Counted from the first letter of the stretch, positions 66-58,707 are shown. The stretch is DNA of 64,000 nucleotides from Nitrosopumilaceae archaeon (GCA_965214835.1 CBDCCK010000002.1:2368001-2432000); one strand, 5' to 3'. Notes: generated from the sequence alone by a model not told the origin. A program made the numbers and translations.

Positions 66-1073
66 TCAAGAACAATCCAAGGGGGGGCGGCCTAGCACAT
101 TTTGCCTGCCGCCTTTGACGATTAGTCCAGTCGTTAGCTTGACTCCATTCCAGCTTGAGCGTTCGGGATTCCATCCGATGGATCTTATCTTTTCTGTATC
201 GAGCATCATGTTTTTCACATCACCACTCCATCCCCTGCCGCCGTCAACTCCGCCCGTATAGTTGATCTTGGTCTTTTTTAGATTCATTTCGTCCAAGACC
301 AGGCTTGCAATGCTTTTTACCCTGATCCTGTCGTCTGATCCCACATTAAAGACCTCGACCTTTTTTCGGGCTTTCTTCAAAGCAAGATGCATTGCCGAGA
401 TGCAGTCATCCACATACAGATACGATTTGCTCTGTTCCCCGTCCCCCAGTACATCAAGGGAGGAGGGATCACTTTGTAATTTCCTGACAAAGTCAAATAT
501 TATCCCGTGCGTGCTGTTCGGCCCAATTATGTTTGCCAACCTGAAGATAACCGCTTTAAAACCAAACATGTGGGCATAGGAGCTTATCAATGCCTCACAG
601 GCCAATTTCGAGGATCCGTAGGTTGAGATTGGCTCCAGCGGGGAGTAGTTCTCAGGAGTTGGAATCTGGCTGGCTTCGCCGTAAACTGTGGAGGTGGATG
701 CAAAAGCCAGTATCTTGGGCTTTGCGTTTTTTAGCTTTTCAAGAAGATTAAAAGTTGCTGTAATGTTTTGGTTAAAATGATCTACTGGTCTTGATCTGGA
801 TGGGTTCACTTCTGGGTGTGCAGCCAAGTGGTAAACTGCATCATACCGTGGCAGCATCCCAAGCGACACTGCATCCAGCAGATCGGCCTTGAAAAATCTA
901 AATTCTCGGCTCCTGCCCCATACTTTCAAGAGGCCCCTGTCGGCAGTCTTGTCAAGTACATGGGTTTCTTTTCCCTCCGAGATTAATTTGTCAACTAGTG
1001 ACCTCCCAATGAATCCCATGCCGCCTGTAACTAGCACGGTTTTTATTCCATCCTGCATCATAGCCTCTGTCAT
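66..1073 (-). CDS. NAD-dependent epimerase/dehydratase (UDP-glucose 4-epimerase-like extended SDR)
   Basis: TGGMGFIG Rossmann motif, STSTVYG, YGSSK catalytic YxxxK. Likely start is ATG 1073 or 1061, not the ORF-track start at 1205. Confidence 0.92.
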   Translation of the reverse strand: MTEAMMQDGIKTVLVTGGMGFIGRSLVDKLISEGKETHVLDKTADRGLLKVWGRSREFRFFKADLLDAVSLGMLPRYDAVYHLAAHPEVNPSRSRPVDHFNQNITATFNLLEKLKNAKPKILAFASTSTVYGEASQIPTPENYSPLEPISTYGSSKLACEALISSYAHMFGFKAVIFRLANIIGPNSTHGIIFDFVRKLQSDPSSLDVLGDGEQSKSYLYVDDCISAMHLALKKARKKVEVFNVGSDDRIRVKSIASLVLDEMNLKKTKINYTGGVDGGRGWSGDVKNMMLDTEKIRSIGWNPERSSWNGVKLTTGLIVKGGRQNVLGRPPLDCS

Positions 1074-1133
1074 ATTCTGAACGCCCCGGGGGGGTGTGTA
1101 ACTAGCACGGTTTTTATTCCATCCTGCATCATA
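1026..1133. repeat. 37-bp perfect direct duplication flanking a unique 34-bp insert
   Basis: TGTAACTAGCACGGTTTTTATTCCATCCTGCATCATA at 1026-1062 and 1097-1133. Confidence 0.95.
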
Positions 1134-1184
1134 TGACTGCCTCCGTTTACACTCATTAAGTTTAGGATGCATGCAGTTCTGACT

Positions 1185-1313
1185 GGGGTTGTCGCCTAAT
1201 TCCACTTGTTTGACTCAACCTGCACGTTTTTCTGAATTTCCGCCCTTTTGCACGCCTGATCCACTGGCATCACAGCGGTTTTCAGGAATTCTGGCGAATT
1301 AGGCGACAACCCC
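1185..1313. mobile_element. MITE family M1 (129 bp), shares ends with the IS at 11551-14486
   Basis: TIR GGGGTTGTCGCCTAATTC...GAATTAGGCGACAACCCC; 9-bp TSD GTTCTGACT at 1176-1184 and 1314-1322. Confidence 0.92.
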
Positions 1314-1395
1314 GTTCTGACTGTGACCATGCAGCAAGCTTCAACCCGGATCGGAGGCTTTTTGATCCGTGTCATTATGGACTCCCTGTCAACCA

Positions 1396-1475
1396 TAGCT
1401 TGTTGCATAACCGTGTCTGAACGTGCAAAAACACCCAATCTTTTGTACTTAAAATCAGGGTTATGCAGCAAACTA
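1396..1475. mobile_element. MITE family M2 (~80 bp)
   Basis: Imperfect TIR TAGCTTGTTGCATAACC...GGTTATGCAGCAAACTA; related copies at 31030-31109, 55919-55997 and a half copy at 40266-40305. Confidence 0.75.
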
Positions 1476-1642
1476 GTCCGTCGGGATTGGTCTCTGCCTT
1501 ACGTGCGTCCTCGATGTCTCGCAGCAATTTACGCACGAATTCTTGGGTTGAACTTGTCTAGTCGCCGTAAGGCACGCAAGATGCGTCTGGTGAACCATCC
1601 TCCGGCGGTTCCTGCCGTCATGTAGGCCCCCTCGGACGTGTT

Positions 1643-1780
1643 GAGAGTTGATTCGAAATTAGCAAATTCTGACTATTTGAGAACGAGTCTGCATGAAACA
1701 GCTCAAAATATCAGCAGAATAAAGTTACCTGTGAAATCACTTGGGAAATTCGCACGGCTACCAATTTCGGCTCACCTCTC
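1643..1780. mobile_element. MITE family M3 (~138 bp), ends resemble the IS5-like element at 20575
   Basis: GAGAGTTGATTCGAAATT...AATTTCGGCTCACCTCTC imperfect TIR; homologous left part at 3167-3262. Confidence 0.65.
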
Positions 1781-2025
1781 TGGTGCCCGGCTCGTGTACT
1801 ATACCTTGCGGGCCATGTCCGGCTTCATACCTTGGAATCTTGGTTTTATCAATGACTATCATCTGGAATCTGCCTATCAGGACGCACCGAGTCCCTGACG
1901 TTCTACCGGATGTCTTGAAGTCTTTTGAAAGATACCCGGAGTTTGAGGAGATGTCCGTGCTCCCTTGGTGATCTCAGAGGATCTCCTGGTTGGATTTGCA
2001 CTGCGCACGGACACCGCCCCGCGCA

Positions 2026-3140
2026 TCAGTCCGGACGCCCTTTCCTACTGCATACGTCCCTTATGTATCGGCTCAGCTGCCTGCCCGACTGATCAACTGA
2101 CAGCTTTTCAAGATAGTGCCGCCGCCCCTGAATGGCCACGCGCCTCCGGAGGTCGTCGTCGTCCCTCAGCTGCAGGATGCACCGGGCCAGCTCCTCGGGT
2201 GAGTCTGACTGCACCAGCATGCAGTTTTTCTTGTCGACCAGGCCTGCCTCGCGCGTCGTGGGCGTGTCTATGGTGACCAGAGGCTTGGCCGATGACAGGG
2301 TCTGGTTGATCTTGTTGGCCATGGATCCCTTGCACTTGTCGCTTGTGCCAAACAGTCCCAGACACACGTCGCTGTCCTTTATCTGCTGTACGAGTGACAG
2401 AGTAGGAAGCATTCCACGAAATCTTACGTTGGAAAGGCCGGCCTCCTCGGCGTACCGCCTTACTTTGGGCTCGTCCTGGCCGCCGCCGCAGAAGACAAAC
2501 GTTATGTCCTTTTCGCCACGCAGGCGGCCGGCTGCCTCCACTATGACCTTGGTGCCGTACGTGGGAATGAACCCTCCAAAATACAGCACGACGAACTCGT
2601 CCGTCCTCTCCTTGAACGGAATCGGTTTAAAGAGCGGCTCGTATGCGGCAGGCCAGAACCGGCGGAACTTCTCCCTCGGCAGGCCGAACTCCCTGACAAA
2701 GTAGTCGATCTGAAAGGTACTCTCCGTTATTACCAGATCCGAGCACCTGTAGGCGGTTTTTTCTGCAAAGCGGAGGATCCTGGCTTTCAGTGAGTTTTTG
2801 GGAATCTCTTTCCGGACGGTCACAAACGTGTCGTAGATCGAAAAGGGAAAGAAACACACTATTGGCCCTTTGGAAATCAGTCTGGCAAAGGGAGAACTGA
2901 CTAGTCCCCCCCCCACTTCATCGGGATTATCATTACGTCATAATCGATCTTCCTGTGCCTTAGAAACAGCCGGATGTACACCTTGACAATCGAGGAGTTG
3001 AGTGGGACTTCATGGCACTCTACAGTTTCAAAACCCTGTGATTTGAGGATGTACTTTAGCAGATCTCCGGTACTGCCAGATGGAATGCCTCTGGTCGATT
3101 TGACGTAGGAGCCAAAGAGACACACCCTCATGAGTGGCAC
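2026..3140 (-). pseudogene. GT4-family glycosyltransferase, frameshifted at a G9 tract
   Basis: N-part 3140-2901 (MRVCLFGSY) and C-part 2916-2026 (YFGGFIPTYG, GT-B C-terminal motifs) meet at C9 2906-2914. Confidence 0.85.
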
Positions 3141-3166
3141 AACATCAGATCCTATTTAAACCTCCA

Positions 3167-3262
3167 GAGAGTTGATTCGAAGTTGGCAGATTCTGATTAT
3201 TTGTGAACGAATTTGCATGACAGCCCAAAAACATCAACAAAATACAAGTTATCTATGAAATT
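3167..3262. mobile_element. MITE family M3, left part, interrupted by IS630
   Basis: Similar to 1643-1740; ends at the TA of the IS630 insertion. Confidence 0.6.
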
Positions 3263-3336
3263 ATAGCAACGAGCAGAAGTCTTTGAGCCAAAACAGGGTT
3301 CATTCGAAAGGTATGACGATCGCGTAACCGGCAAGC

Positions 3337-4481
3337 ATGGCAAAAGAAACAGACGGCCTGTCAGAGGCCATGCGCAAAGAAAAGGATGTCAAAGTCTACA
3401 AAAAGATCATGGCGCTGGTGTTTGTGCCAGAGGACGACATAGGCGTGCCCGAGACCGCAAAAGGGGTCCGGTGCAGCGAGAATTCCGTGCGCAGCCGGCT
3501 GGCGAGGTTTTCGGAGGACGGCATGGACGGCCTCCGGGATCTTCCCCGTTCCGGATGCAGGCCAAAGGTGGACAGAAAAAGGATTGCCGCCATAATGAAC
3601 CTGTCCATTGAATACAGCAGTACCGACGTCATGACGGTGCGCGATGACACAAGGGATGCCGCCTAGACAGAATACAGCACAGGACATGTCCGAAGACTGA
3701 TGCGCCAGTACGGCCTGTCGCGCCGCAAGGTGCAAAACGTACATGCCAGCCATGCCACCCCAAGCTCGGTATACTCATGGCAGCGGTATCTTGAAAACGT
3801 GCGTATTCCGTGCCTGAAAAACGACGGTTTTACGCTGGTGTCATCTGATGAGGCATTTTTCGTGCAGGGTGCATACGACAGATACGTATGGGGTCCGGTC
3901 GGCACCAGAAGCGTGGCATCGTATTCGGGGGACCACACAAAGGTGGCCGTGTTTGGAAGCATCGCAGAAGACGGCAGAAGGCTGTTCAGGACGTTTACGG
4001 GATCGTTTAGGTCAGTGCAGTTCATACAATGTCTGGAGGCGTTGCGCGCCAAGTTTGGCAAGGTTGCCGTCTTTTGCGACAGGTGGAGTGTGCACAGATC
4101 TATTGACGTCGCAGAATATCTGGCAGGTCATCCCGACATCAGGCTGATAATGATCCCGAAAGGATCGCCGTACCTCAATATCGTGGAAGAATGCTGGAAC
4201 CTGGGCAAGCCTGTCGTTTTCAGGGGGATAGTGTACAGAAGGATCAGCAAGCTGCGGCATGCCATATCCGAATATTACAGGACGGTGTCGTTTGCCCACC
4301 TTTGCATGTCAGTCTTCCCAAAAGTAACCGATTTGTGGCGGTTCAGGAGGTGGCAAGCGGGTATGCAGGCAGTCCGTTTGAATTATTTCGAGCCCGGGAT
4401 AATTTGACGTGGTACTTCTGGGAAGACTGCATGTACAAGTACATTTACAGATCGCCGGTCAAGGCCCTCAATTACTTGTGA
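3337..4481 (+). pseudogene. IS630 transposase pseudogene
   Basis: HTH (DLPRSG) in 3337-3666; in-frame TAG at 3664-3666; DDE motifs SDE, CDRWSVH, PKGSPYLNIVE; C-terminus interrupted by the MITE at 4310-4429. Confidence 0.85.
4310..4429. mobile_element. MITE family M4 (ISH3-type ends, 120 bp)
   Basis: TIR CAGTCTTCCCAAAAGTA...TACTTCTGGGAAGACTG; 5-bp TSD CATGT; removal restores the frame FAHLCMYKYIYRSPVKALNYL*. Confidence 0.92.
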
Positions 4482-5872
4482 CCGTTGCTATACGAACAAA
4501 TTCATCTCATTCAGGTGGATTGCGCATAAAGTCTAATGAGCTAACTATGTGCCACCTACGCCCAAGGAGTCCGATAGGCCATCCTCAAACCCAAGGTGCA
4601 CTAGGAGTGCCCCGTCATAGTCTCCCATACAAGTATGTTCGACGGCGGTTTCTGTGTCTTCGTCGGCCAGTACAGCCATCTCCACATGGCACTCGTGAGC
4701 GGCCGACACGTAGCTGGCAGGCAGCAGTGCCGAATATATCATGACATCATCCAGTACGGTGTCCTGCGCAGGCCCGCCGCCGATGCTGTTGGCGTCTATC
4801 TTAAGCAGATACTCGTTTGCAGCGTATTCTGACAGTAACATGACATGCTTGCCCCGCCTGTCGATCTGTCCGTCCACGTACACGTCGAGTCCGCCGCTGC
4901 TCCCGGAGCCGTCATAGGTGAACACGACGTGGTGCCAGCGGCCGTCGGCCACGCTGGAGAACGTACTGGTGCCTATCTGATCCTGCGCGTTGTCAGTCAT
5001 CATGAGTGAGATCCCGCCGCCGGGGCGGTTCCACACGGTGATACCTTGATGCATGTCCGCATCGTCCTTTGATATGATCGACGAGTCCGGGTCTCCCAGA
5101 CCCGTATTTTTGATCCAGAACGCAATGCTGAACGGATCGTCCACGCCAAGATCGAGGACTGGCGCAGTGGCAAGTGTGATATGTGCAGTATCATCAAGAT
5201 CCAGTGCTCGGCCGGCCGGGCCATACGTGGATAAGGAGGCCCACCCGGGAGGGTTCCATTCCCTTACCTCCACACTGCGATCGACATGCGGGATGACTAC
5301 TGATGGTATCAGTATGTCCGGTTTGGGGGCGTTCTCAAACTCGGCCACCCTGTTGCCGCCGTTGTATATCTCCGAATACCGTCGTATCCAATCCGTTTCT
5401 AGAGACGCTGTCGCATTGTCGCCGCCGCGACTGGTCTCCATCTTGTTCATCTGCCTGTGGTTTCTGTCATTATAATCTACTATTACGATCTTTTTGGTTT
5501 TTTGCGGTTGTGCGGTATGTTTGCCAAAGAAGTCATATACAACCATGCCAGAATCGGTAAGATTGTAGGCCTGCGGCAGCCACGATTCGTGAAACTGTAA
5601 CATGATTATTCCCGCCTCAGAGTCCGCATAGTTTTGCAGCGTAAAGGATACTGCTTCAGAGTACACGGATGTCACGTCCCAGTGCACAAGCACGCCCGAC
5701 GTGGACAGGCCGAGTGCCGCGATCACAAGCACAGCAGCCAGCAGCAGTGTGCGCTGCCCGCTTGAACCCAACCGTCCCGCGGATGCCCTTTCGATTCCGC
5801 TGCCGATCAGTGCGGCGGCGGCAATGCACATCGCAGTCCACAGCATTCCTAGGTGGGAGTACGATACGTATC

Positions 5873-7628
5873 GTAATAGGTTAGCCCCTGCCTAGTTGAT
5901 TTTTTCTGACCACCTGATCTATAAACTATCATTACCCGGGAAATACATGCCTACAGCCTCGGAATTCAAGGAACTATGCAATGAGCTTGCCCGCGAAAAA
6001 GCGGAACTTCAGAAGGAGCAGAAGGAACATCAGAGGACGCAAGGCAAGCTTCAGAAGGAGCAGAAGGAACATCAGAGGACGCAAGGCAAGCTTCAGAAGG
6101 AGCAGAAGGAACATCAGAGGACGCAAGGCAAGCTTCAGAAGGAGCAGAAGGAACATCAGAGGACACGGGAGGAGCTTGCCGCTGAGAAGGCGGGACGCAA
6201 ATCTGACAATGCCGTCTCTGCCGCGCAAATCGCGACGCAGACAGCACAAATCAAGCAGTTCAAACAACGCATCACATATTATGAGAACCCGCACAGCCCC
6301 TCCTCGCAGAACTCGATTCCGACCAGGCAGAAAAAGGCAGCAGCCGCGGCAGGGGCATCTGGAAGGGCACCTACAAGGCCGGGCCGCAGGCCCGGACACG
6401 AGGGCATATCACACAGGAGAACACCGACCCGGGAAATGAACCACGTGCCTGACATGTGCGGCGCGTGCAACGGGCGCGACCTGACAGATCCGGTTCCCGC
6501 CGGAACTAGGATGGCTACTGACATTCCAGAGATCCCAGAGCCGGTCACGACACAGCACTACTTTACCCGCCGCAAGTGCCGCAAGTGCGGCGCCATCACC
6601 ACGACAAACGGGGGCGGGCTGGTCGTTCCGGGCACCGAGTTTGGACCCAACATTGCCTCCTATATCGGCACCCTGTACACCATGCCGGCATCCGTCGGCT
6701 CGATCAGGCGCATCGTAAAGGAGATCTTTAAAATTGATGTAAGCAAGGCGATGATACAGAACTGCCTCAAGACCGTTACAAAGAAGCTTGATCCGTGCGT
6801 GGAGGACATCAAAAAAGACATTGCAGGATGCGACCACGTCCACATGGACGAGACGGGGATGCCATACGACGGCAAGAGCGGCTACATGTGGGTGGCAGTG
6901 GGCGTCAAGGACGGCAATGCCGTCGGCGCGCACATGGTGGCAACTGACAGCAGGAGGGCATCCGTACTGGATGAGCACTTTTCATACGTGCCCAGAGTCG
7001 GGGTGACTGACGGATACCCCGGATACGACAAGTTCTTTGGCAGGAACAGGCAGCGGTGCTGGGCCCACATAATCCGGGAGGCAGACGCCCAAAGCGAGAA
7101 AACGGACTCCCCGGAGGTTCGCGCCGCAGGCGAGCGCCTCAAGTGGCAGATGCATTGCGCCAAGGGGCCGGGGCCGCCGGAGGAGGCTGCCAGGCAGCAC
7201 GACAGTCGGGTGGCAGAAACACGCGAGATTGCCGCCACATACAGGAAGGAAGGATGTGACAGCTGTGCCACAAAGATTGACAACGCCTCGGAGTTTCTCT
7301 ACACGTTTACGACGCGTCCTGGGATGGATCCCACCAACAACCTGGCAGAGCGCACGCTGAGGCCCGGCGTGATCGCGCGCAAGATACGGTTCGGACTGCG
7401 GACAAAAGACGGACAGAAGATGTTCGGTAACATGTTGACGTGCATCGAGACATGGCGCCTCCGGGGGTGCAACGTTACGGACATGATCAGGGACGCGCTG
7501 GTCAGAAACCCCGGGTACGTGGTCGTCTGCCCCTAGCAATCCTGCACTAATCTGCCTGCAGTTGTGATTTTCATGCCTGAAAAGACGGTGGGTGTGACTT
7601 TAACTCTAGGCAGGGGCTAACCTATTAC
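5873..7628 (+). mobile_element. IS66-family single-ORF (ISBst12-like) element, type A, copy 1
   Basis: Perfect TIR GTAATAGGTTAGCCCCTGCCTAG; 8-bp TSD TACGTATC. Confidence 0.95.
5896..7536 (+). CDS. IS66-family transposase (intact; probable ATG at 5947)
   Basis: Coiled coil, CxxC zinc motifs, HMDETG, TDGY, QRCWAH, PTNNLAERTLR. Confidence 0.93.
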   Translation: MIFSDHLIYKLSLPGKYMPTASEFKELCNELAREKAELQKEQKEHQRTQGKLQKEQKEHQRTQGKLQKEQKEHQRTQGKLQKEQKEHQRTREELAAEKAGRKSDNAVSAAQIATQTAQIKQFKQRITYYENPHSPSSQNSIPTRQKKAAAAAGASGRAPTRPGRRPGHEGISHRRTPTREMNHVPDMCGACNGRDLTDPVPAGTRMATDIPEIPEPVTTQHYFTRRKCRKCGAITTTNGGGLVVPGTEFGPNIASYIGTLYTMPASVGSIRRIVKEIFKIDVSKAMIQNCLKTVTKKLDPCVEDIKKDIAGCDHVHMDETGMPYDGKSGYMWVAVGVKDGNAVGAHMVATDSRRASVLDEHFSYVPRVGVTDGYPGYDKFFGRNRQRCWAHIIREADAQSEKTDSPEVRAAGERLKWQMHCAKGPGPPEEAARQHDSRVAETREIAATYRKEGCDSCATKIDNASEFLYTFTTRPGMDPTNNLAERTLRPGVIARKIRFGLRTKDGQKMFGNMLTCIETWRLRGCNVTDMIRDALVRNPGYVVVCP

Positions 7629-8751: not shown

Positions 8752-10373
8752 GTAAGAGTTTACCCCTCATCCGTATAATTTAGATTGAGCACAAGGCCAA
8801 TTTTTGATCACCATCTGGATCCATATGCATCCAGATCACACCTGTATTCATTGCCTGATTCAGAGACCAAGATACTACGCGACGAGTTGGCCCGCACCAT
8901 AGCCGAATTAGGCAGGAAGGACAGGATCATCGCAGACAAGGATCAGACGATAACCATGCTTGTCGAACAGATGGCCGAGTCCTCGGTGACAATCGTGATG
9001 CAGGCATCACAGATCAGCTGGTACAGGCAAAAGGGACCAGAGGGGGTAGCAGCATCTGAGGCGCAGACTGCCGAACTGAAAGCAGAAAACCAGCAGCTCA
9101 GACAGCACATCAAATATTACGAAAACCCGCACACCCCATCCTCGCAGAACTCGATTCCGACCAAGCAGAAAAAGACTGCTGCTGCAAAGGCATCAGGCAA
9201 CGTACCGGCATCTGCAAAGGCAAAGCCGGGCCGCAGGCAGGGACACGAGGGGATATCACACAAGAGAATGCCGACCGAATTTGTAAAGCACTGCCCCAAA
9301 AAGTGCGGCAAGTGCGGCAGCACCAACATGAAGAAGCCGAAAAAGATCTTCTCCAAACTTGTGACCGATACCCCCAGGAGGCCCGAGCCGGTCACGACAC
9401 AGCACACCGCATACAGGCGCAAATGCGCCGACTGCGGCAACATGTGCATCGAAGACGACAGGTCATGGAACGTGCCGGGAACCGAGTTTGGACCAAACAT
9501 CACGGGGATGATGGCCGCAATACGCGTGGCACCTGCCTCCATACAGGCCACGGCCACACTGTGCTCAGAAATCCTGGGCATGGACGTCTCAGAGGCAGGC
9601 GTGCTGCAGTGCCTGAGGGCCGGTGCCAATGCGATAAAGCCCAGCGTAGAGGGCATCAAGCAGGCCATCAAGGATTCTGATTATCTGCATATTGACGAGA
9701 CTGCCATGCCATACAACGGCAGGACGGCCCGCATATGGGTAATAGTAGGCAGGAACAAGGACGGCACCACAACCGGCGTCCACACGCTGGCCGCACCCAG
9801 TAGAGGCAGGGCCGTAGTTGACATGAACTTTCCGTATTATGACAAACCGGTCACAGTCGACGGGTACGGCGTATACGCCGCATTCAAGACCAGGCAGTGG
9901 TGCTGGGCCCACATACTCCGGGAGGCCAGGGAGGCCTGCAAGGCTTCTAGGCAGGCCCACGCGCTGTATGTGGCCCTTAAGAAAAAGTTCATCCATGCCA
10001 AGGGGCTGGGGCCGCCGGAGGAGGGCGCCGCCCGGCACGACATGCTGGTGGCAGAAACGCGCGGGCTGGCCGAGGCATTCGGCATGGAGGCCGGATGCGA
10101 GAGCTTTGCCACAAAGCTTGGGAACGCCTCGGAATACTTGTACACGTTCACATTGCATCCTGGCATGGAGCCCACCAACAACCTGGCCGAGCGCATGCTG
10201 AGGCCGTCCGTAATTGCGCGCAAGGTATTCCAGGGACTCCGTACCATGGAAGGCATGGAGATGTTCACCGTATTGATGACGTGCGCGATGAACTGGCGCG
10301 CCCGGGGGTGCGGCGTGAGGGAAATGCTCGTCAAGACCATGACAGGAAACGTCGCCTGAGGGCAAACTCTTAC
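8752..10373 (+). mobile_element. IS66-family single-ORF element, type B
   Basis: TIR GTAAGAGTTT(A/G)CCC...; flanks AGGTCACC and AGCTGATA do not match (no TSD). Confidence 0.9.
8785..10359 (+). CDS. IS66-family transposase
   Basis: HIDET, VDGY, CWAH, PTNNLAERMLR; diverged paralogue of type A. Confidence 0.92.
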   Translation: MSTRPIFDHHLDPYASRSHLYSLPDSETKILRDELARTIAELGRKDRIIADKDQTITMLVEQMAESSVTIVMQASQISWYRQKGPEGVAASEAQTAELKAENQQLRQHIKYYENPHTPSSQNSIPTKQKKTAAAKASGNVPASAKAKPGRRQGHEGISHKRMPTEFVKHCPKKCGKCGSTNMKKPKKIFSKLVTDTPRRPEPVTTQHTAYRRKCADCGNMCIEDDRSWNVPGTEFGPNITGMMAAIRVAPASIQATATLCSEILGMDVSEAGVLQCLRAGANAIKPSVEGIKQAIKDSDYLHIDETAMPYNGRTARIWVIVGRNKDGTTTGVHTLAAPSRGRAVVDMNFPYYDKPVTVDGYGVYAAFKTRQWCWAHILREAREACKASRQAHALYVALKKKFIHAKGLGPPEEGAARHDMLVAETRGLAEAFGMEAGCESFATKLGNASEYLYTFTLHPGMEPTNNLAERMLRPSVIARKVFQGLRTMEGMEMFTVLMTCAMNWRARGCGVREMLVKTMTGNVA

Positions 10374-10398
10374 AGCTGATAACTCGCATACGTTTTTT

Positions 10399-23094: not shown

Positions 23095-24809
23095 GTAATA
23101 GGTTAGCCCCTGCCTAGTTGATTTTTTCTGACCACCTGATCTATAAACTATCATTACCCGGGAAATACATGCCTACAGCCTCGGAATTCAAGGAACTATG
23201 CAATGAGCTTGCCCGCGAAAAAGCGGAACTTCAGAAGGAGCAGAAGGAACATCAGAGGACGCAAGGCAAGCTTCAGAAGGAGCAGAAGGAACATCAGAGG
23301 ACGCAAGGCAAGCTTCAGAAGGAGCAGAAGGAACATCAGAGGACACGGGAGGAGCTTGCCGCTGAGAAGGCGGGACGCAAATCTGACAATGCCGTCTCTG
23401 CCGCGCAAATCGCGACGCAGACAGCACAAATCAAGCAGTTCAAACAACGCATCACATATTATGAGAACCCGCACAGCCCCTCCTCGCAGAACTCGATTCC
23501 GACCAGGCAGAAAAAGGCAGCAGCCGCGGCAGGGGCATCTGGAAGGGCACCTACAAGGCCGGGCCGCAGGCCCGGACACGAGGGCATATCACACAGGAGA
23601 ACACCGACCCGGGAAATGAACCACGTGCCTGACATGTGCGGCGCGTGCAACGGGCGCGACCTGACAGATCCGGTTCCCGCCGGAACTAGGATGGCTACTG
23701 ACATTCCAGAGATCCCAGAGCCGGTCACGACACAGCACTACTTTACCCGCCGCAAGTGCCGCAAGTGCGGCGCCATCACCACGACAAACGGGGGGCGGGC
23801 TGGTCGTTCCGGGCACCGAGTTTGGACCCAACATTGCCTCCTATATCGGCACCCTGTACACCATGCCGGCATCCGTCGGCTCGATCAGGCGCATCGTAAA
23901 GGAGATCTTTAAAATTGATGTAAGCAAGGCGATGATACAGAACTGCCTCAAGACCGTTACAAAGAAGCTTGATCCGTGCGTGGAGGACATCAAAAAAGAC
24001 ATTGCAGGATGCGACCACGTCCACATGGACGAGACGGGGATGCCATACGACGGCAAGAGCGGCTACATGTGGGTGGCAGTGGGAGTCAAGGACGGCAATG
24101 CCGTCGGCGCGCACATGGTGGCAACTGACAGCAGGAGGGCATCCGTACTGGATGAGCACTTTTCATACGTGCCCAGAGTCGGGGTGACTGACGGATACCC
24201 CGGATACGACAAGTTCTTTGGCAGGAACAGGCAGCGGTGCTGGGCCCACATAATCCGGGAGGCAGATGCCCAAAGCGAGAAAACGGACTCCCCGGAGGTT
24301 CGCGCCGCAGGCGAGCGCCTCAAGTGGCAGATGCATTGCGCCAAGGGGCCGGGGCCGCCGGAGGAGGCTGCCAGGCAGCACGACAGTCGGGTGGCAGAAA
24401 CACGCGAGATTGCCGCCACATACAGGAAGGAAGGATGTGACAGCTGTGCCACAAAGATTGACAACGCCTCGGAGTTTCTCTACACGTTTACGACGCGTCC
24501 TAGGATGGATCCCACCAACAACCTGGCAGAGCGCACGCTGAGGCCCGGCGTGATCGCGCGCAAGATACGGTTCGGACTGCGGACAAAAGACGGACAGAAG
24601 ATGTTCGGTAACATGTTGACGTGCATCGAGACATGGCGCCTCCGGGGGTGCAACGTTACGGACATGATCAGGGACGCGCTGGTCAGAAACCCCGGGTACG
24701 TGGTCGTCTGCCCCTAGCAATCCTGCACTAATCTGCCTGCAGTTGTGATTTTCATGCCTGAAAAGACGGTGGGTGTGACTTTAACTCTAGGCAGGGGCTA
24801 ACCTATTAC
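23095..24809 (+). mobile_element. IS66 type A, copy 2 (transposase frameshifted)
   Basis: Same TIR as copy 1; 8-bp TSD CTGGCACT; G6 instead of G5 at ~23790 splits the gene into 23118-23912 and 23863-24717. Confidence 0.95.
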
Positions 24810-26558: not shown

Positions 26559-27664
26559 TGTTTCATGTGAAAATTAGTTCCGCCCCTCATTAGTATCCTT
26601 TTCCATCCATTTGGGGTCGCTTTTCCTGATCGCTTCTGTGGCCTCCCGGCTCCGGAACGCCATCCTAGGCGTCTTGGCACGCCCCATATCCGGCGACCAG
26701 TGCGTCCTGCGCTCGTTGTAGAACTCGATGAACTCGTCGATGCTCTAAGTGCGTCAGCTCCCTCTCAAGCGTCCCAAACTACCTCTCCAGCTTGCCGTTG
26801 GTCTGGGGGTGATGCGGACGCGAGTTGAGCAGGACGATGTTGTGCTCCAGTAGTTCGTTCTCAAACAGCGTGGGCGTCCAGCTGCCCCGGGGGGTGCCGC
26901 GCCTGGTAGACGTAAAGCAGCTGTCGTTGTCAGAGAGTATCTGGGCCGTCGTCCCGAATTGCCTGATGGCATTGCGCAGCACTAGGCCCGGTGCAATTTC
27001 CCCGCTGTCCAGTCTGCCGGCGTCCCGAATTGCCTGATGGCATTGCGCAGCACCAGGACTGCGTTCTCCGAGGTCGCGTGCTCAAAGACGCCGAATCCGG
27101 TTATGCACCGCGAGGAGTCGTCAAGATATGCCTGCCAGGTTGAGCTTTTCTAGGCGTGGATCCTTCATTTCGTGTCAGTATGTGTGCCACATTGCGTTTG
27201 AGTACCTGCGCTCGTAGCGCAGCCATTTGAGCTGCCTGGATCTTCCGGGCGAGCTGTCCGTGATTCCCTCGGCCTTCATGATCCTGTATACTGCATGATA
27301 GCTTGTCTGCCTGCCTGCGGCCCTCATGCGCAATGCCAGCCGCTCTGCACCCGACGGCATCTGTGTATATGCATCAAGGACCGCCTTCACATCCCCGGGA
27401 TCCGTGTCCACGCCGGGCCTTCCTGCCCCGCTCCGTGGCAGGATCGTGCCGGAGCTGCGGAACCTGGCCCATATCTTCCTGACGTACCTGTCGCTGATGC
27501 CCAGCTCCCGGGCTATCTGCCTTGCAGACACGCCCTTTTTCCTCTGCCTTTCTATGTACCTGAGCGACTTTTCCTCCAGTCTTTTCCTCGCATTTTTTGA
27601 TCGGTACAGCCTGAAATAATCCCAAGTACGCCTGATTAGGCGGAACTAATTTTCGTATGATAGA
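26559..27664 (-). mobile_element. IS481-family element, transposase decayed
   Basis: TIR core GAAAATTAGTTCCGCC; 15-bp TSD TTCATATGCAGTCTT; motifs YERRYSNAMWH, LSDND, HPQTNGKLER. Confidence 0.88.
26950..27057. repeat. 37-bp direct duplication (1 mismatch) flanking a unique 34-bp insert inside the IS481 transposase
   Basis: CGTCCCGAATTGCCTGATGGCATTGCGCAGCAC(T/C)AGG at 26950-26986 and 27021-27057. Confidence 0.93.
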
Positions 27665-29604: not shown

Positions 29605-30249
29605 TTAATCAAATGCTTCCTGAGATCTGGCCTCTTCGAGGTATGCGCGCCTTTCCTCGTTGATCTTGTCCTGATCAATTGCCAGATCATCCTCAACGAT
29701 CACAATCCCCATGTCGCCAATTGGCTCGTCTTTTGCCTTTTTCTTGGATTTGTTAGCCTTGGCCTTTGCCTTGGCAGTTGCAGGCTTTACCTCCTTGGGT
29801 TTTGCTTCCTTGGTTACAGTAGGCTTGGTGGTCTTGGCCTTTGCCTTGGCAGTTGCAGGCTTTACCTCCTTGGGTTTTGCTTCCTTGGTTACAGTAGGCT
29901 TGGTGGTCTTGGCCTTTGCCTTGGCAGTTGCAGGCTTTACCTCCTTGGGTTTTGCTTCCTTGGTTACAGTAGGCTTGGTGGTCTTGGCCTTTGCCTTGGC
30001 AGTTGCAGGCTTTACCTCCTTGGGTTTTGCTTCCTTGGTTACAGTAGGCTTGGTGGTCTTGGCCTTTGCCTTGGCAGTTGCAGGCTTTACCTCCTTGGGT
30101 TTTGCTTCCTTGGTTACAGTAGGCTTGGTGGTCTTGGCCTTTGCCTTGGCAGTTGCAGGCTTTACCTCCTTGGGTTTTGCTTCCTTGGTTACAGTAGGCT
30201 TGGTGGTCTTGGCCTTTGCCTTTGCTTTCTTTGCAGTCTTTTCTGCCAT
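29605..30249 (-). CDS. Lys/Ala/Thr/Pro-rich repeat protein (histone-H1-like composition) with acidic C-terminal tail
   Basis: 6 x AKAKAKTTKPTVTKEAKPKEVKPAT; tail EERRAYLEEARSQE. Confidence 0.8.
   Translation of the reverse strand: MAEKTAKKAKAKAKTTKPTVTKEAKPKEVKPATAKAKAKTTKPTVTKEAKPKEVKPATAKAKAKTTKPTVTKEAKPKEVKPATAKAKAKTTKPTVTKEAKPKEVKPATAKAKAKTTKPTVTKEAKPKEVKPATAKAKAKTTKPTVTKEAKPKEVKPATAKAKAKANKSKKKAKDEPIGDMGIVIVEDDLAIDQDKINEERRAYLEEARSQEAFD
29761..30210. repeat. Perfect 75-bp tandem repeat x6
   Basis: Unit GGCCTTTGCCTTGGCAGTTGCAGG...GTGGTCTT. Confidence 0.97.
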
Positions 30250-30336
30250 AAATTGCATGAAAGGATAAACTGCATGTTAATAAAACTTGTGCAGAATTGG
30301 ATTTTTGTTTTGGGATCGTTCGATCAGGAATCAAGG

Positions 30337-44108: not shown

Positions 44109-44120
44109 TTGCTCTCACAG

Positions 44121-49046: not shown

Positions 49047-49137
49047 GTTATTGCGGTATAACCAGCTATACTAAATGTGGGGATTTTTTTACAAGAACAT
49101 GGTTAAGGGATCCTTTGGAACGGTCACCGTGGAGAAA

Positions 49138-53718: not shown

Positions 53719-53914
53719 CACACACCGGTGATCGGGTCTCCCCAGTGCATCCGGTCCCACGCCTGTCATGCGTTTGTTGCGCGGGTCGGCAACAGACCTT
53801 GCGTATAATCTGCATAGATCAAAAAAATCAGGCAGCTTTTACGCGGTTTTTGGCAAATACGCACAAGGCCTACATATGGTTAGCCCGCATGTTAGATGCA
53901 TGCATTGGCCAAGC

Positions 53915-54024
53915 CAGCTAAGTGAAACGTAAGCGAGATTTGCTGTTTTGCCTTGCTGCTGAGGAGTTGCGCCTCATGCCAGTTTTTGTTTTTGCGCGAT
54001 TTCAGGGTACTTTTCACTTAGCTG
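53915..54024. mobile_element. MITE family M5 (ISH3-type ends, 110 bp)
   Basis: TIR CAGCTAAGTGAAA; 5-bp TSD CAAGC. Confidence 0.9.
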
Positions 54025-54029
54025 CAAGC

Positions 54030-54222
54030 TTGCCGGAATGCGTTCTACAGGAGGCGTCTTTCCGTTTGTCATCTTTACGGCCTCTAGGCATACCTTGTAG
54101 AAATCCTTGCCCAATGCGACGATCTTCCTGCCCACAATCGCAATCCACTTTTCCATGCATGGCTCGATGTCCTTCAGACTCAGAGACTCTAAAAACCCAC
54201 ATTCCACACTTGGCATTACCAC
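54030..54222 (-). pseudogene. DUF5678-like small protein, 3' end hit by a MITE
   Basis: KWIAIVGRKIVA.GKD...EA motif. Confidence 0.55.
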
Positions 54223-54354
54223 CGGTTCTCACTGCATGCAGCATGCAAGTCTGCTATTAAAGACAGTATGGCTGCGGTAAGAGTTTTGCACCCCCAGGCG
54301 GGCATTACCTATCCCGGAGGCACGGCCATAAGGATCCATGCCATATCTTCTGAC

Positions 54355-54466
54355 CAGCCAAGTGAAATGTGCCAAAAAACCGAGTAAAAGCAAAAACCGG
54401 ACAAGAGGTGCAACACCTCGATAGCAAGACAAAAACAACAAATCTCACTTACATTTCACTTGCCTG
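54355..54466. mobile_element. MITE family M5, inverted copy
   Basis: CAGCCAAGTGAAATGT...ACATTTCACTTGCCTG. Confidence 0.8.
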
Positions 54467-54510
54467 AGGATTTCCAATCATTTTTTAATGAACGGCTACC
54501 AGAATAATGC

Positions 54511-55308
54511 ATGGGGGACGGAGAGAGGAAGGCGCTGGGATTTGTCAATCCCGAAAAAGGCGCCAGGCATTACATCCGCAGGTACCTAAACGAGCCAAAA
54601 TACAGGGACTGGTTCCATAGAAACTATCCCGACTATACAATCCACCAGGGAATCGGAATCTCAGAGGAGGAGTTCAAAAAGATCTCTAATGAGTTGGCGG
54701 GGCACGAGGCTCCTGCAGAGCACGCCGCCAAAGCCCGTGAGACGGCCGTACAAGGCAGTGCGAATGTGGATCAAAATGGGGACGATGGACTGACCCGGCT
54801 AAAGCAGTTGGCCGAGCAAATCAAGCAGGAAGACTCGGACTCGTTTTCAGAGGAGGATGAAAAGAAAATACAGCCCAAGGGGGAGGATCTTGCAAAGACG
54901 GTTTTTGACTCATACTCAGACGAGGGCGGAGGCTATGACAGGCGCACGTTTGAGGAGTTTGTAGACGAGAGAGTCCTGGTAAGCAGGGATCTGTTTGGCA
55001 AAAAAGAGATGAAGATCAAGATTCTGGAGGTCTCCGACGAGATCCAGGAGTCAAAGATCAGGTGGAAGTTCGGGGACCGGGTAAAGGTCAACAAGATTTT
55101 GGTTACAGTAAAGCACCTGGACAGCATGGAGGTGGAGGAAGGCGAGTTTGACATCGAGGCAATCGAGAAGGAGCTCGCCGAGAAGAGGCACTATTCATCG
55201 ACGAACCGCTGGATACCCTCGGGGGACATCAAAAACGGATACGTGGTCAACTCAAAACATACTGCACTGATCAGCGATGCAGTAGCCCTGGACTATATCG
55301 TGTTCTAG
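54511..55308 (+). CDS. Conserved thaumarchaeal hypothetical protein
   Basis: FVNP...HYI.RY..EP.Y.DWF..NYP N-terminal motif; acidic C-terminal domain. Confidence 0.8.
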   Translation: MGDGERKALGFVNPEKGARHYIRRYLNEPKYRDWFHRNYPDYTIHQGIGISEEEFKKISNELAGHEAPAEHAAKARETAVQGSANVDQNGDDGLTRLKQLAEQIKQEDSDSFSEEDEKKIQPKGEDLAKTVFDSYSDEGGGYDRRTFEEFVDERVLVSRDLFGKKEMKIKILEVSDEIQESKIRWKFGDRVKVNKILVTVKHLDSMEVEEGEFDIEAIEKELAEKRHYSSTNRWIPSGDIKNGYVVNSKHTALISDAVALDYIVF

Positions 55309-55557
55309 ACACGTCAAAAACCTTGAATTCTTTTCGCCCAACATGTATCAATGACTATAGCACGCACGTCAAAAACTGCAGCATAATTTTGACGCATCGT
55401 GCATATTTCGATGAGAAAAGAGCCTTTTCAACCGTGCGCATTATGTCAACCCGATTTTCCGGCTCATTCCAAGGTGCCCGGAACATGTTATCGACAGTTT
55501 GGCACTTGCAGTTGGGATTTGAAATGCAGGCCCTGCCACGGAACTAGGGAGCAAGTC

Positions 55558-55665
55558 CAGCCAAGTGAAATGTAAACGGGATTATTGCTTTTGTCCTGTT
55601 GAGGCATCGTGCCTCCTGTCCAGATTCTGTTTTTACTCGATTTCTTGGTACTTTTCACTTGGCTG
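55558..55665. mobile_element. MITE family M5 (108 bp)
   Basis: TIR CAGCCAAGTGAAA; 5-bp TSD AAGTC. Confidence 0.9.
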
Positions 55666-55918
55666 AAGTCAGCACAACTTTCATGTGTGCGCCTTGTAGA
55701 TGCCTCGGTGTCCCAAAAACTTTCCAAGGCGTTCTATCTGCCTGTCTCTTTTTACTTTCCTGATCCATGCAAACGCGGCCTCTGCTATTATCACGACCAT
55801 GCCTCCTGTTTGTCATGGGACTGGGAGACGGTAGGTGAAAGGCCATCACCTAAAGGCACCTGCAGTAGACACGAAGGATCTGAGCCAAGGCCGGGGCAAT
55901 TTGACAGGACCTGAAAAT

Positions 55919-55997
55919 TAGCTTGTCGCATAACCGTGCCTGAACGTGTAAAAACAGGCGGTCTCTTGTGTCAAGTCAGGGCTTGTGTAACAGACTA
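55919..55997. mobile_element. MITE family M2 copy
   Basis: TAGCTTGTCGCATAACCGTGCCTGAACGTG, similar to 1396-1475. Confidence 0.7.
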
Positions 55998-56222
55998 TGG
56001 AAATGGCGCGCTTATTGGATGGCTTTTGTGCATGCAAAACGTGACGGGCAAAGAGAAAAAGAAGGAGAATCAAAGAGGTGGCAGAACGATGCATAAATGA
56101 CAACAAGCTGATCTTCAATGCACTGTCCAAAATACGACGGTACATCTTACCGCCGATGACGTGCCGGGCCTGCACCACGTTGCCAAGAAAACCTTTAAAG
56201 ACCAATATCTAGAAGCTCACTT

Positions 56223-56528
56223 GTGATTACAAAGACGGTTGAGGCAAACGGTGCAAAGTTTAGGATTACGCTCACTGATCAGGTCATAAGCCAGGTAAAC
56301 AGCCTAAAGGATCTGTACAATACGGCGTATGAGGATCCGGAAAGCTTTGAGCAGGTAAGCTCGGAGATATCCTCAACCATACAGGACATTTCCACGGCAG
56401 TAGATCCAGAGCCCTCCGGCAGTGATCTAGACGACCTGATTCAGGAGATAATCAAGGTCGTGGACAACAAGGCCGCAGAAATGCAAAAAGAACTGGAGGA
56501 AAGGCCCGCAAAAAGATCCAAAAAATAA
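56223..56528 (+). CDS. Conserved hypothetical protein
   Basis: Clean ORF with TTTAAA TATA-like box upstream. Confidence 0.75.
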   Translation: MITKTVEANGAKFRITLTDQVISQVNSLKDLYNTAYEDPESFEQVSSEISSTIQDISTAVDPEPSGSDLDDLIQEIIKVVDNKAAEMQKELEERPAKRSKK

Positions 56529-56576
56529 CCTAAATATAGAAAAATTCAAGAACTAGGCCGAGGCAATACAAGGGGG

Positions 56577-56711
56577 ATGAAAATGGTCAATAGCTGCGAG
56601 TGCGGGATATGTGGGCATCACGAGGAGGCAGAATGCCTGAAAAGCGAGTGTCGGTGCTGTCTGAACTTTCACGAGAGATCCGGCCCCCGCATCAGGAATC
56701 AGTCCGCGTAG
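56577..56711 (+). CDS. Small Cys/His-rich protein (44 aa, below the ORF-track cutoff)
   Basis: MKMVNSCECGICGHHEEAECLKSECRCCLNFHERSGPRIRNQSA*. Confidence 0.6.
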   Translation: MKMVNSCECGICGHHEEAECLKSECRCCLNFHERSGPRIRNQSA

Positions 56712-56796
56712 CAGCTGCACCTTTTTGCGGCGTGCCTGCCGCAGCCAACCAGCCTGTGATCCCGGCACCCGCACAAGACGCATCTTTTTTCGGCCA

Positions 56797-57171
56797 TCAC
56801 AAGTCCTCCATGATGTGGCGTATTTTGTTAACCAGCCTTCTGTCAACAAAGGACTCTAGGATCTTGAGGCGGATGTTGTGAATCCTGTTTGCATCCTCAG
56901 AGTACAGGGGCGACATCATCCTGATTTCATGCTCAAAGGAGTACGTGTTGATATAGTCTTCGGCAGCAGCTGCCAGCTCCTTGTGGCTGGCCCGGGGGGA
57001 TTTTGAGTCCTCCACCCTGTTGACGATTGCCTGAAACAGTGCCGTGATCCTGGCAATTTCCTTGTTGATTATGGGGAGATCCCCGGGCCTGTCCTCTAGC
57101 TCAGACAGCCTCTGGTGGGAGTCCAAAACCCGGCCCAAGACATCCCTAAAGTACTCGTCATACGTGACCAT
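56797..57171 (-). CDS. Conserved hypothetical protein
   Basis: Helical ORF; YSFEHEI, RLKILES. Confidence 0.75.
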   Translation of the reverse strand: MVTYDEYFRDVLGRVLDSHQRLSELEDRPGDLPIINKEIARITALFQAIVNRVEDSKSPRASHKELAAAAEDYINTYSFEHEIRMMSPLYSEDANRIHNIRLKILESFVDRRLVNKIRHIMEDL

Positions 57172-57235
57172 GTCTGGTATAGAAAATCCAATAATCTTAA
57201 AGCTTCGTAGCCTCTGGCAGTCTAGTATCTTTAAA

Positions 57236-58594
57236 TTGGAACGCCCACAGTCAGAAGCGTTGCAGTCTGCTTACCTGAAATGCATCGAGCCGGCATGCGG
57301 GCTGGAGTATCCGATAGGGGAGGTCAGGGTCGAGTGCGACAAGGGACACCTCCTGGATGTCATGTACGGGCAAAGGCCAAGCCCGTCCCTGAAGGATGCG
57401 TTTTTGCAGAGGAGAAACCCGGGCGGGAGCATCTTCAACGAAAGCGGGGTATGGCGGTTCAGGGAGCTGCTCAACTTTTGCCAGATCGATACCGAGAACC
57501 TAGACGAGTGCGCAGAAAAACTGGTCTCTCTAGACGGGGCAGAGGGAAGGCAGTCAAAGCCGTACCAGATGTCAAAGCCTGCAGAGTTCACAGGACTGCC
57601 CACAGAAGGCCTGTGGCTGCAGCCAGAGGGGTACAACCCGAGCGGCTCCTTTAAGGACAACGGGATGGCGACCGCGGTGACGCATGCAAAGATGGCAGGG
57701 GCAGAGAAAATCGTATGCGCATCCACGGGAAACACCTCGGCATCTGCAGGGATGTTTGCCGCAAACGAGGGGATCAGCTGTGACGTCTACATCCCTGCAG
57801 GCCAGATTGCGCCGGGCAAGCTGAGCCAGGCATACCAGTTTGGGGCGCAGATAGTCCAGGTCGATGGAAACTTTGATGATGCACTGAGGCAGTCGCTGGA
57901 CGAGGCAAAGAACCACGGCGGATACACGGTCAACTCGATCAATCCGTTCAGGATAGAGGGACAAAAGACGATCCCCTTTAGGGCCCTGGAGTATCTGGAC
58001 TGGGAGGCCCCCGACTGGATCGTCTACCCCGGCGGGGCACTTGGAAACACGTCTAGCTGCGGAAAGGCGCTGATGGAGCTGTACGAGTGGGGCTGGATAA
58101 AAAAAATCCCAAGAATTGCGGTAATCAATGCAGAGGGCGCAAGCACGCTTTCGGACCTGTACAACGGGGGGTTCGAGGGCGAGAGGCTGCGCTGGAACCG
58201 GGGGAGGCCAAACACGGGGTTGATTGCAAGATACTATGATCACCTTGACAGGGAGGGCATACGCCCCAAAACAAAGGCAACTGCAATCCAGATCGGCAGG
58301 CCCGCAAACATCCTCAAGGGCCTGCGCGCACTGGAGTTTACCGACGGCGTTGTGACTACGGTAACCGATGCGGAAATGCTTGACGGCATGTCCGTAGTGG
58401 GGCTGAACGGGTTTGACTGCGAGATGGCATCAGGCGCATCGCCTGCAGGGATCAGAAAGCTGATCGGCGAGGAGATCATCAAAAGAGACGATGTCGTGGT
58501 GGGAATCCTGACGGGGAGGCAAAAAGACGCGATGCTACCCGTGGACTATCACAACAACCCGCAAAACAGGTTTGCAGTACCCCCGAGAAACTAG
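57236..58594 (+). CDS. thrC: Threonine synthase
   Basis: N-terminal Zn motif, NPSGSFKD, CASTGNTS, EGQKT; likely TTG start at 57236. Confidence 0.95.
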   Translation: MERPQSEALQSAYLKCIEPACGLEYPIGEVRVECDKGHLLDVMYGQRPSPSLKDAFLQRRNPGGSIFNESGVWRFRELLNFCQIDTENLDECAEKLVSLDGAEGRQSKPYQMSKPAEFTGLPTEGLWLQPEGYNPSGSFKDNGMATAVTHAKMAGAEKIVCASTGNTSASAGMFAANEGISCDVYIPAGQIAPGKLSQAYQFGAQIVQVDGNFDDALRQSLDEAKNHGGYTVNSINPFRIEGQKTIPFRALEYLDWEAPDWIVYPGGALGNTSSCGKALMELYEWGWIKKIPRIAVINAEGASTLSDLYNGGFEGERLRWNRGRPNTGLIARYYDHLDREGIRPKTKATAIQIGRPANILKGLRALEFTDGVVTTVTDAEMLDGMSVVGLNGFDCEMASGASPAGIRKLIGEEIIKRDDVVVGILTGRQKDAMLPVDYHNNPQNRFAVPPRN

Positions 58595-58598
58595 GCCC

Positions 58599-58707
58599 CG
58601 CACCCGTGGGATGCAGACAGGCCCGCATCATGAGCGAACCATGGAAGATGCGTTGAACGCAAAACAGAGGGCGCACCCGTGGGATGCAGACAGGCCCGCA
58701 TCATGAG
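58599..58707. repeat. 36-bp perfect direct duplication flanking a unique 37-bp insert
   Basis: CGCACCCGTGGGATGCAGACAGGCCCGCATCATGAG at 58599-58634 and 58672-58707. Confidence 0.95.

Follow-up and report, generated by a model that had tools for sequence, protein, structure and literature searches.

Off-target spacer integration by the adaptation proteins of CRISPR systems is a process known from the laboratory. In the type I-E system of Escherichia coli, overproduced Cas1-Cas2 gave rare events of this kind that were detected by deep sequencing (Nivala, Shipman and Church 2018, as cited; PMC7054753), and papers citing that study describe off-target sites with a weak resemblance to native integration sites. 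For natural genomes, only "circumstantial evidence" in two other species is mentioned (bioRxiv 10.1101/148544). The present analysis concerns a 64,000-nt stretch of the chromosome of a Nitrosopumilaceae archaeon (GCA_965214835.1, CBDCCK010000002.1:2368001-2432000), referred to as the window, together with the rest of the host genome, G000. Three loci in the window, and dozens elsewhere on the chromosome, consist of a native sequence of about 36 nt duplicated around a spacer-sized insert. With a probability of about 0.9, these scars are natural off-target (ectopic) spacer integrations by the host type I-G Cas4/Cas1 fusion and Cas2.

The scars resemble the neo-CRISPR loci of E. coli in that a spacer-sized fragment lies outside the array with repeat-length native DNA duplicated around it, the duplication being the work of Cas1-Cas2 in the E. 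coli case. They differ in being fixed in a natural archaeal genome, in their number (38 unique events and about 15 decayed ones), in the type I-G Cas4/1 fusion that would have made them, and in carrying self-derived inserts that bear a protospacer-adjacent motif (PAM). Purified Pyrococcus furiosus Cas1-Cas2 acting in vitro keeps the repeat-length spacing at off-target sites, prefers G and then C at the attacked nucleotide, and selects sites resembling the repeat borders (PMC6698737). G000 shows the same G-then-C preference and likeness to a repeat border, although the P. furiosus data come from a plasmid assay with a 30-bp spacing, whereas G000 provides a chromosomal record with a 36-bp spacing.

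The type I-G (formerly I-U) system of Geobacter sulfurreducens has a fused Cas4-Cas1, a predominant spacer of 36 bp, and a TTN PAM (PMC6547450), and all three features recur in G000. According to a section heading of the same paper, the G. sulfurreducens Cas4/1 selects non-chromosomal spacers; among the off-target inserts of G000, by contrast, 11 of 38 are chromosomal. Ectopic spacer acquisition has also been described in Streptococcus thermophilus and Streptococcus mutans, where it occurs inside arrays and away from the leader-proximal repeat (PMC7999890, PMC8265633). Both kinds of event avoid the leader-proximal repeat, but those of Streptococcus use a true CRISPR repeat and those of G000 use non-CRISPR DNA. 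A search of the full-text literature, for the most part without subscription journals and without supplementary files, found no report of fixed, genome-wide off-target spacer integrations in a natural genome.

Genome-wide Geometry of the Scars

G000 comprises 3.22 Mb in two contigs, the chromosome (C2, in which the window spans 2368001-2432000) and a 13-kb contig (C1). An exact scan of the chromosome for direct repeats no shorter than 24 nt and spaced 40-130 apart returned 501 repeats, of which 90 are isolated and not tandem. The lengths of these isolated repeats peak at 36 (16 repeats) and 37 (12), and their spacings peak at 72 (22), 73 (9), 74 (5), and 75 (8); a further spacing peak at 84 (15) represents a multicopy element. 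Forty-four of the 47 isolated exact repeats of 33-42 nt fall at a spacing of 66-79, with two at 40-65 and one at 80-130. The first-pass annotation had proposed a spacer-integration system from the three loci of the window and looked to a sharp genome-wide peak as its test; the peak is there in both length and spacing.

A second scan tolerated mismatches, requiring at least 31 of 36 matching positions and unlike flanks. It gave 65 hits at spacings of 66-80 versus 3 at 46-60 and 4 at 86-100, the control spacings. Thirty-nine of these hits are perfect and 26 imperfect, and about 15 of the imperfect ones are further, decayed candidates with 1-5 mismatches. Because perfect and decayed scars are both present, the events are of different ages.

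Selection by length and insert size yielded 44 events, or 40 unique ones once later duplications are removed. A family of 42+37+42 repeats borne by an insertion sequence (IS) in four copies, and a related event at C2:1736693, were left out of the core count because they are possibly intrinsic to the insertion sequence, which leaves 38 core events. Apparent duplication lengths in this set are 33 (1 event), 34 (2), 35 (3), 36 (16), 37 (11), 38 (3), and 39 (2). If duplications were fixed at 36 nt and gained single bases at either end by chance, simple arithmetic would predict a ratio of about 18:9:3:1 for lengths 36-39, close to the observed 16:11:3:2. Insert lengths, taken as the period minus 36, have modes of 36 (14) and 37 (9). 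The inserts measure 30-40 nt and are mutually unrelated except for copies that arose by later duplication, and a by-eye look at the listed inserts saw no shared termini or terminal repeats.

The four identical copies of the IS-borne 42+37+42 repeat lie at C2:1308256, 1624026, 2343414, and 2692095, and diverged homologues of the element at C2:608098, 1995606, and 2707231 carry 25-27-nt versions at spacings of 72-74. Transposition may have spread an old off-target event here; alternatively, the repeat may be part of the element. The duplicated stretch at C2:1736693 contains GTTGCGG, which is also present in the stem of the CRISPR repeat. A separate cluster of palindromic 25-32-nt repeats with the core AAAATGTGGCAATATTGCCACATT occupies C2:34440-36040; its irregular spacing of 64-126 nt is unlike that of the type I-G array.

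The Host Type I-G CRISPR-Cas System

The whole genome contains one Cas1 hit, a Cas4g/Cas1g fusion of 566 amino acids (NF049935, 754.8 bits). It belongs to a type I-G locus that begins 48 kb past the end of the window, with the array beginning 50 kb past it. Following an archaeal ribosomal-protein operon, the order is Cas4g/Cas1g, Cas2 (32.1 bits), a 171-nt leader, the array (C2:2482178-2492954, 148 repeats of 36 nt), an IS630 transposase gene that sits between the array and cas3g, Cas3g (630.3 bits), Cas8g2, Csb1/Cas7g, and Csb2. Cas8g2 scores 100.8 bits, which is under its curated cut-off of 125, and the other models are above theirs. The signature set of type I-G, consisting of the Cas4/Cas1 fusion, Cas2, Cas3g, Cas8g2, Csb1, and Csb2 together with an array, is present in full.

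The scars share the dimensions of this array. Its 147 periods are distributed as 71 (7), 72 (45), 73 (54), 74 (18), 75 (16), and 76 (4), plus single periods of 62, 77, and 87. The modes are 72 and 73; the scar periods have their mode at 72, followed by 73. The modal duplication length of the scars, 36 nt in 16 of the 38 core events, equals the length of the host repeat. The first-pass annotation had suggested looking for cas1, cas2, and cas4 and comparing repeat and spacer lengths: the fusion and Cas2 were found, and a 36-nt repeat with periods of 71-76 reproduces the scar geometry. The canonical repeat also carries a visible hairpin, CCGCAAC...GTTGCGG. Two units of the array are irregular: the first spacer is only 26 nt long (period 62), and the unit with a period of 87 shows a 50-nt exact repeat at C2:2487864.

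In an alignment of 17 Cas4/1 sequences, that of G000 deviates at none of the nearly invariant columns; it keeps the invariant columns by construction, being itself among the 17. The nearest homologues, at 72% identity, are in Nitrosopumilus or Nitrosopumilaceae, which marks the host as an archaeon of the ammonia-oxidising type in that family. The adaptation machinery is complete and seems intact. A small orphan array lies far from the locus on the opposite strand (C2:135893-136330), with at least 6 repeat copies, counted as exact pairs, that are 36-nt variants of the type I-G repeat at periods of 73-74. Near the cas genes, a 402-amino-acid open reading frame (ORF) of the ribosomal protein L24 type (C2:2475820-2477028; KOW, Ribosomal_L26) includes, at C2:2476210-2476800, tandem repeats whose periods are 66-75 nt. 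Its repetitive extension is unusually long for this protein.

Scars within the Window

The three loci of the window, none of whose parts is assigned to a strand, have the geometry first described for them, exactly so at locus 1 (37+34+37) and locus 3 (36+37+36) and with one mismatch between the copies at locus 2 (37+34+37). At locus 1, identical 37-mers at 1026-1062 and 1097-1133, each a 36-nt duplication plus one ambiguous base, enclose a spacer-sized insert of 34 nt (1063-1096). On the minus strand, the first copy holds the beginning of an epimerase-like ORF (66-1205, minus strand), namely its start codon and first 11 codons; the downstream copy leaves this ORF intact. The insert has no match of 20 nt or more elsewhere in G000, and a 27-nt part of it has no exact match in viral_contigs.

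Locus 2 falls inside a transposase gene that is degraded. Its 37-nt copies (26950-26986 and 27021-27057) surround a 34-nt insert (26987-27020) that comes from the host chromosome, and a repeat search of the window extends the duplication to 42 nt at 95% identity. Locus 3, in intergenic DNA, begins 5 nt past the stop codon of the ORF at 57044-58594. Two identical copies of 36 nt (58599-58634 and 58672-58707) flank a spacer-sized insert of 37 nt (58635-58671). This insert has no self match in G000 by BLAST, parts of it have no exact match in viral_contigs, and the junction and a nearby coding 23-mer gave 0 matches in metagenome_contigs.

Other repeats occur in the same stretch. Adjoining locus 1, at 1185-1315, is a multicopy element of about 130 nt with the appearance of a miniature mobile element. 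One search counted more than 10 copies of it in G000, at 87-95% identity, and 11 matches in the congener G002. A 42-nt tandem repeat occurs twice, at 5965-6216 and, 17 kb away, at 23187-23396, and a 75-nt tandem repeat at 29675-30274 shows 7 overlapping 150-nt register copies, most of them at 98% identity.

Origin of the Inserts

The 40 unique inserts and the 147 array spacers were searched against the genome by BLAST. For 11 of the 38 core inserts (29%), a match of at least 28 nt with 96% identity or more lies elsewhere on the chromosome, and one further insert matches at 87%. None of the 147 array spacers matches the chromosome in this search, and when a single match on C1 is counted the comparison of self-matches is 11 of 38 inserts versus 1 of 147 spacers (Fisher p = 8e-8). 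In one orientation, TTN (TTC or TTG) stands immediately 5' of 6 of the 11 sources, for which chance, with either orientation allowed, would give 11.8% (p = 7e-4). It is offset by one base in 3 others and absent from the last 2, both of which are partial matches. The shared PAM that the first-pass annotation proposed to look for is present at 6 of these sources. Its description of the inserts as foreign can apply to only part of them, at least 11 of 38 being from the host chromosome, that of locus 2 included.

Two sources illustrate the pattern in relation to the window. The locus 2 insert is identical in 32 of 33 nt to C2:904373-904405, with TTC one base upstream of the match, and its source lies about 3 kb from orc1/cdc6. 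Conversely, the window itself contains a protospacer on the minus strand (63929-63967, comprising the protospacer at 63964-63929 and a TTC PAM at 63967-63965). This is the source of the off-target insert at C2:3161310-3161345, outside the window, with 32 of 32 identities across aligned bases 5-36 and 35 of 36 across the whole insert.

Some of the sources are also clustered. Three of the 10 single-locus sources (902.2, 904.4, and 906.4 kb) fall within 4.2 kb adjoining orc1/cdc6 (C2:900127-901338), just past this gene and that of the DNA polymerase D small subunit. Cumulative GC skew has its maximum at 890 kb and its minimum at 2.35 Mb, and the genes and skew together suggest that the orc1/cdc6 region is a replication origin. 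The probability that at least 3 of 10 single-locus sources fall in a fixed 10-kb window is 4e-6, a value that is only indicative because that window was picked after the data had been seen.

The one array spacer that matches the assembly, spacer 41 (C2:2485136), is identical over 36 of 36 nt to C1:6366-6401, with TTC nearby, in a large family-2 glycosyltransferase gene. The spacer may target the host itself or be directed at another strain. The idea that C1 is a plasmid or virus targeted by this spacer is unsupported; the contig carries glycosyltransferase, IS66, IS110, and laminin-G-domain genes.

Empty Sites and Polarity

The scar arrangement is derived and the empty state is the earlier one, as evidenced by paralogous and orthologous sites; the first-pass annotation had proposed to look for empty sites in related strains or reads. 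For 19 of the 38 core events, the same genome contains paralogues with a single copy of the target and no insert. Some of these are 99.65% identical to the filled site (C2:717492 versus 2636701-2637237; C2:2201735 versus 669011-669547). The empty paralogue of locus 1 (C2:1842503-1843318, 86-88% identical) has the 37-mer once, and the two halves of its alignment overlap by 37 nt. Similarly, six paralogous copies of the element at locus 2 have a single target and no insert, with about 90-93% identity for two of them. Identical filled copies occur within duplicated segments at 1921439 and 1966990.

Orthologous empty sites in congeners were found for 2 further events, one in an HtrA-type protease and one upstream of rpL13. 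The G000 protease reads VAVDEEIIKAG-NETVAKINTTEQ-VAVDEEIIKAG, an in-frame insertion of 23 amino acids, where its orthologues in G001 and G004 show just one homologous stretch. G002 lacks the event upstream of rpL13 and carries one copy of the target, which has diverged. For locus 3, G002 has one copy of the conserved start of the unit, but the intergenic and spacer region has diverged and the comparison is ambiguous. No orthologue of locus 1 was found in the relatives, where only the multicopy element of about 130 nt was matched.

Target-site Choice

Target preferences can be read from both ends of the 16 unambiguous 36-nt events, which provide 32 half-sites, each taken 5' to 3' starting at the attacked position. 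At position +1, 18 of the 32 carry G and 11 carry C; at position -2, 29 carry G or C; and at position +5, 19 carry C. Mean identity of the half-sites to GCTTCAAT, the spacer-side end of the repeat on the bottom strand, is 2.94 of 8 compared with 1.97 ± 0.22 in random sets, and 0 of 5000 random sets reached 2.94. The target preference thus amounts to a weak motif, approximately G-Y-N-N-C-A-A, that occupies the extreme 5' end of each strand of the duplicated unit and is like the spacer-side end of the repeat. An expectation-maximization motif search of the targets with 15-nt flanks gave weak information, at most 0.5 bit per position. The sequence GCAYCA, noted near the right end of the duplicated units in the window, is absent from most of the 44 events and is therefore rejected as a general signal.

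Genes Hit, Distribution, and Lineage Specificity

Scars are found in both mobile and host genes. Five transposase genes of four Pfam families are hit (DDE_Tnp_1, DDE_3, rve in two genes, and IS110). The host genes include glmS, two family-2 glycosyltransferases, a PMT/laminin-G protein (two copies), a sulfotransferase, the HtrA-type protease, a DNA methylase, and cobA. Long ORFs read through the in-frame events, and frame-shifting events shorten the ORFs hit, from 390 to 317, 294 to 251, and 379 to 316 amino acids.

The events are unevenly spread along the chromosome, with 10 of 38 lying up to 150 kb upstream of the cas locus and 1 within the same distance downstream (scan statistic p = 0.0014). 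This concentration of recent scars may possibly mean that the integrase acts preferentially near its site of synthesis. The cluster also lies near the GC-skew minimum at 2.35 Mb, and it may follow either the presumed terminus or the cas locus. The decayed candidates are found in other regions, chiefly 1.18-1.31 Mb and 2.04-2.26 Mb.

Two congeners were compared, G004 over 400 kb including its array and G003 over 360 kb of its contig C1, quoted together as 760 kb outside arrays. Both have a Cas4g/Cas1g (724.6 and 686.6 bits) and arrays with 36-nt repeats. The excess of scars in G000 could come from a higher off-target rate, more adaptation activity, or weaker selection in an IS-rich genome.

Proposed Mechanism and Alternative Explanations

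Array-like dimensions, a single Cas1 gene, TTN motifs beside self-derived inserts, empty sites, and a repeat-like end motif all point to the conclusion reached in outline by the first-pass annotation, that a Cas1-type integrase writes spacer-sized DNA at non-CRISPR sites. The Cas4/1-Cas2 complex of G000 is the probable maker of the scars. This complex would capture prespacers of about 36 bp, mostly beside a TTN PAM and partly from the host chromosome, notably near the replication origin. Prespacers would normally be inserted at the leader-proximal repeat. Occasionally, the two active sites would instead attack ordinary DNA on opposite strands, 36 bp apart, and gap filling would duplicate the 36 bp around the insert, leaving a single repeat-spacer-repeat unit whose "repeat" is native DNA. 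The choice of site would depend weakly on sequence, favouring a G or C where attack takes place and a start resembling GYNNCAA. The surviving events are found in mobile elements, in intergenic DNA, at gene ends, or as in-frame additions of 22-25 amino acids, and frame-breaking ones truncate genes.

Several results weigh against this interpretation. Twenty-seven of the 38 inserts, including those of loci 1 and 3 in the window, are without an identified source. Likeness of the half-sites to the leader-side end of the repeat, ATTTCCGC, is not raised (1.81 versus 2.00, p = 0.83), and likeness of the whole target to the repeat is small (12.4 versus 11.4 identities of 36, p = 0.0015). In the events that a PAM orients, the PAM end of the insert lies at the better repeat-like half-site in 5 and at the opposite one in 1, with 3 ties or ambiguous cases, which is not significant. 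Nor is the excess of in-frame events, 22 of 38 compared with 62 of 147 array periods (p = 0.10). In the 760 kb of G003 and G004 there are 0 scars where about 9 would be expected at the density of G000 (P(0) = 1.2e-4), and a lineage-specific factor is needed. Finally, contigs assembled at k=31 from public sequencing (four runs from three studies) end within the 36-37-nt duplications and cannot span the insertions. At locus positions 9055 and 6703, exact public contigs reach 30 nt into the duplicated 37-mers before ending, which fits a branch in the graph and neither confirms nor refutes the insert.

In the same public data, C2:2360001-2370000 is represented in all four runs (X1, X3, X5, and X7) by exact copies and by variants with many differences, at different depths, which suggests that related strains coexist. 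None of the public runs listed for the region is recorded as RNA. A joint from 385 to 471 near C2:2360350 resembles an empty site in the four runs; it was not used, as its short side is 21-32 nt and may come from a paralogue.

The strongest alternative retains off-target integration as the mechanism and reinterprets the number of scars. Weak purifying selection, plentiful neutral DNA in the form of insertion sequences and pseudogenes, and a very active adaptation module would let events accumulate without any relaxation of integrase specificity. This is a real possibility, if one that we stop short of favouring. Half of the core events (19 of 38) lie in multicopy DNA, transposase genes of four Pfam families are among those hit, and the array is three to four times those of the congeners (148 repeats versus about 36 and about 52 exact repeat pairs listed), all as expected if selection is weak and adaptation active, and a Cas4/1 with no deviation at conserved columns is what unrelaxed specificity would predict. 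On the other hand, about half of the events are in single-copy DNA, including such housekeeping contexts as glmS, the region upstream of rpL13, the HtrA-type protease, and cobA, and the congeners show no scars in 760 kb although their intergenic DNA should gather neutral events too. The data do not demonstrate the relaxed targeting proposed in the first-pass annotation; a higher off-target rate could account for the excess, and so could more adaptation activity together with weaker selection.

It is very improbable that another mobile element or a repair process, such as a casposon-like integrase, an insertion sequence, or templated repair patches, makes the 36-bp duplications. In favour of this view is the IS-borne 42+37+42 family, with its off-peak and possibly element-intrinsic geometry. 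Between the duplications of the other events, however, there is no recurring element or integrase gene: the inserts are too short for a gene and unrelated to one another, and by eye those listed lack terminal repeats. Moreover, the sole Cas1-family gene of the genome sits in the CRISPR locus, and the sources of the inserts are distant rather than local and bear PAMs.

There is similarly little to recommend the view that the units are functional one-spacer mini-arrays whose guide RNAs serve, for example, in self-regulation. Eleven inserts match the host chromosome and could in principle guide self-targeting. Unlike a canonical array, with three or more copies of a single conserved repeat, a leader, and polar growth, each unit consists of two copies of a different, unrelated native sequence, and none has a second spacer. 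Active self-matching spacers would be autoimmune, and the true array has none of its 147 on the chromosome. Given that the repeat hairpin is visibly absent from the listed units, they would presumably yield no CRISPR RNA. Least probable of all are assembly or sequencing artefacts such as chimeric or mis-polished reads, for although the public contigs break within the repeats, artefacts would not reproduce the repeat and spacer lengths of the host array, copy distant chromosomal sites beside TTN PAMs, give a target-end motif, recur as identical filled copies in duplicated segments, or show decayed forms.

Implications

As off-target integrations, the scars of G000 show in nature, and on a large scale, a process that was known from laboratory work. 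The natural rate of off-target integration, its cost to the host, and its capacity to seed new arrays had stayed open questions, and one genome now gives dozens of dated, polarised events. These show, independently of leader effects, the 36-bp ruler that is intrinsic to a type I-G integrase and its weak preference for certain ends. They also form a record of captured DNA unfiltered by autoimmunity, 29% of it self-derived, with a hotspot beside the presumed origin. The genetic cost is visible in truncated genes and in in-frame insertions of 22-25 amino acids, as in the HtrA-type protease. A general screen follows for any genome, namely a search for isolated duplications with the length and spacing of its own array.

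Possibly, although on balance we are somewhat doubtful, the adaptation module is in this lineage a chronic endogenous mutagen and the scars are an uncensored archive of integrase captures, which would escape the selection that acts on autoimmune spacers and so reveal heavy self-sampling and an origin hotspot, with local action near the cas locus, and raw material for new arrays. If this is true, the off-target units would be the starting material from which CRISPR arrays arise de novo.

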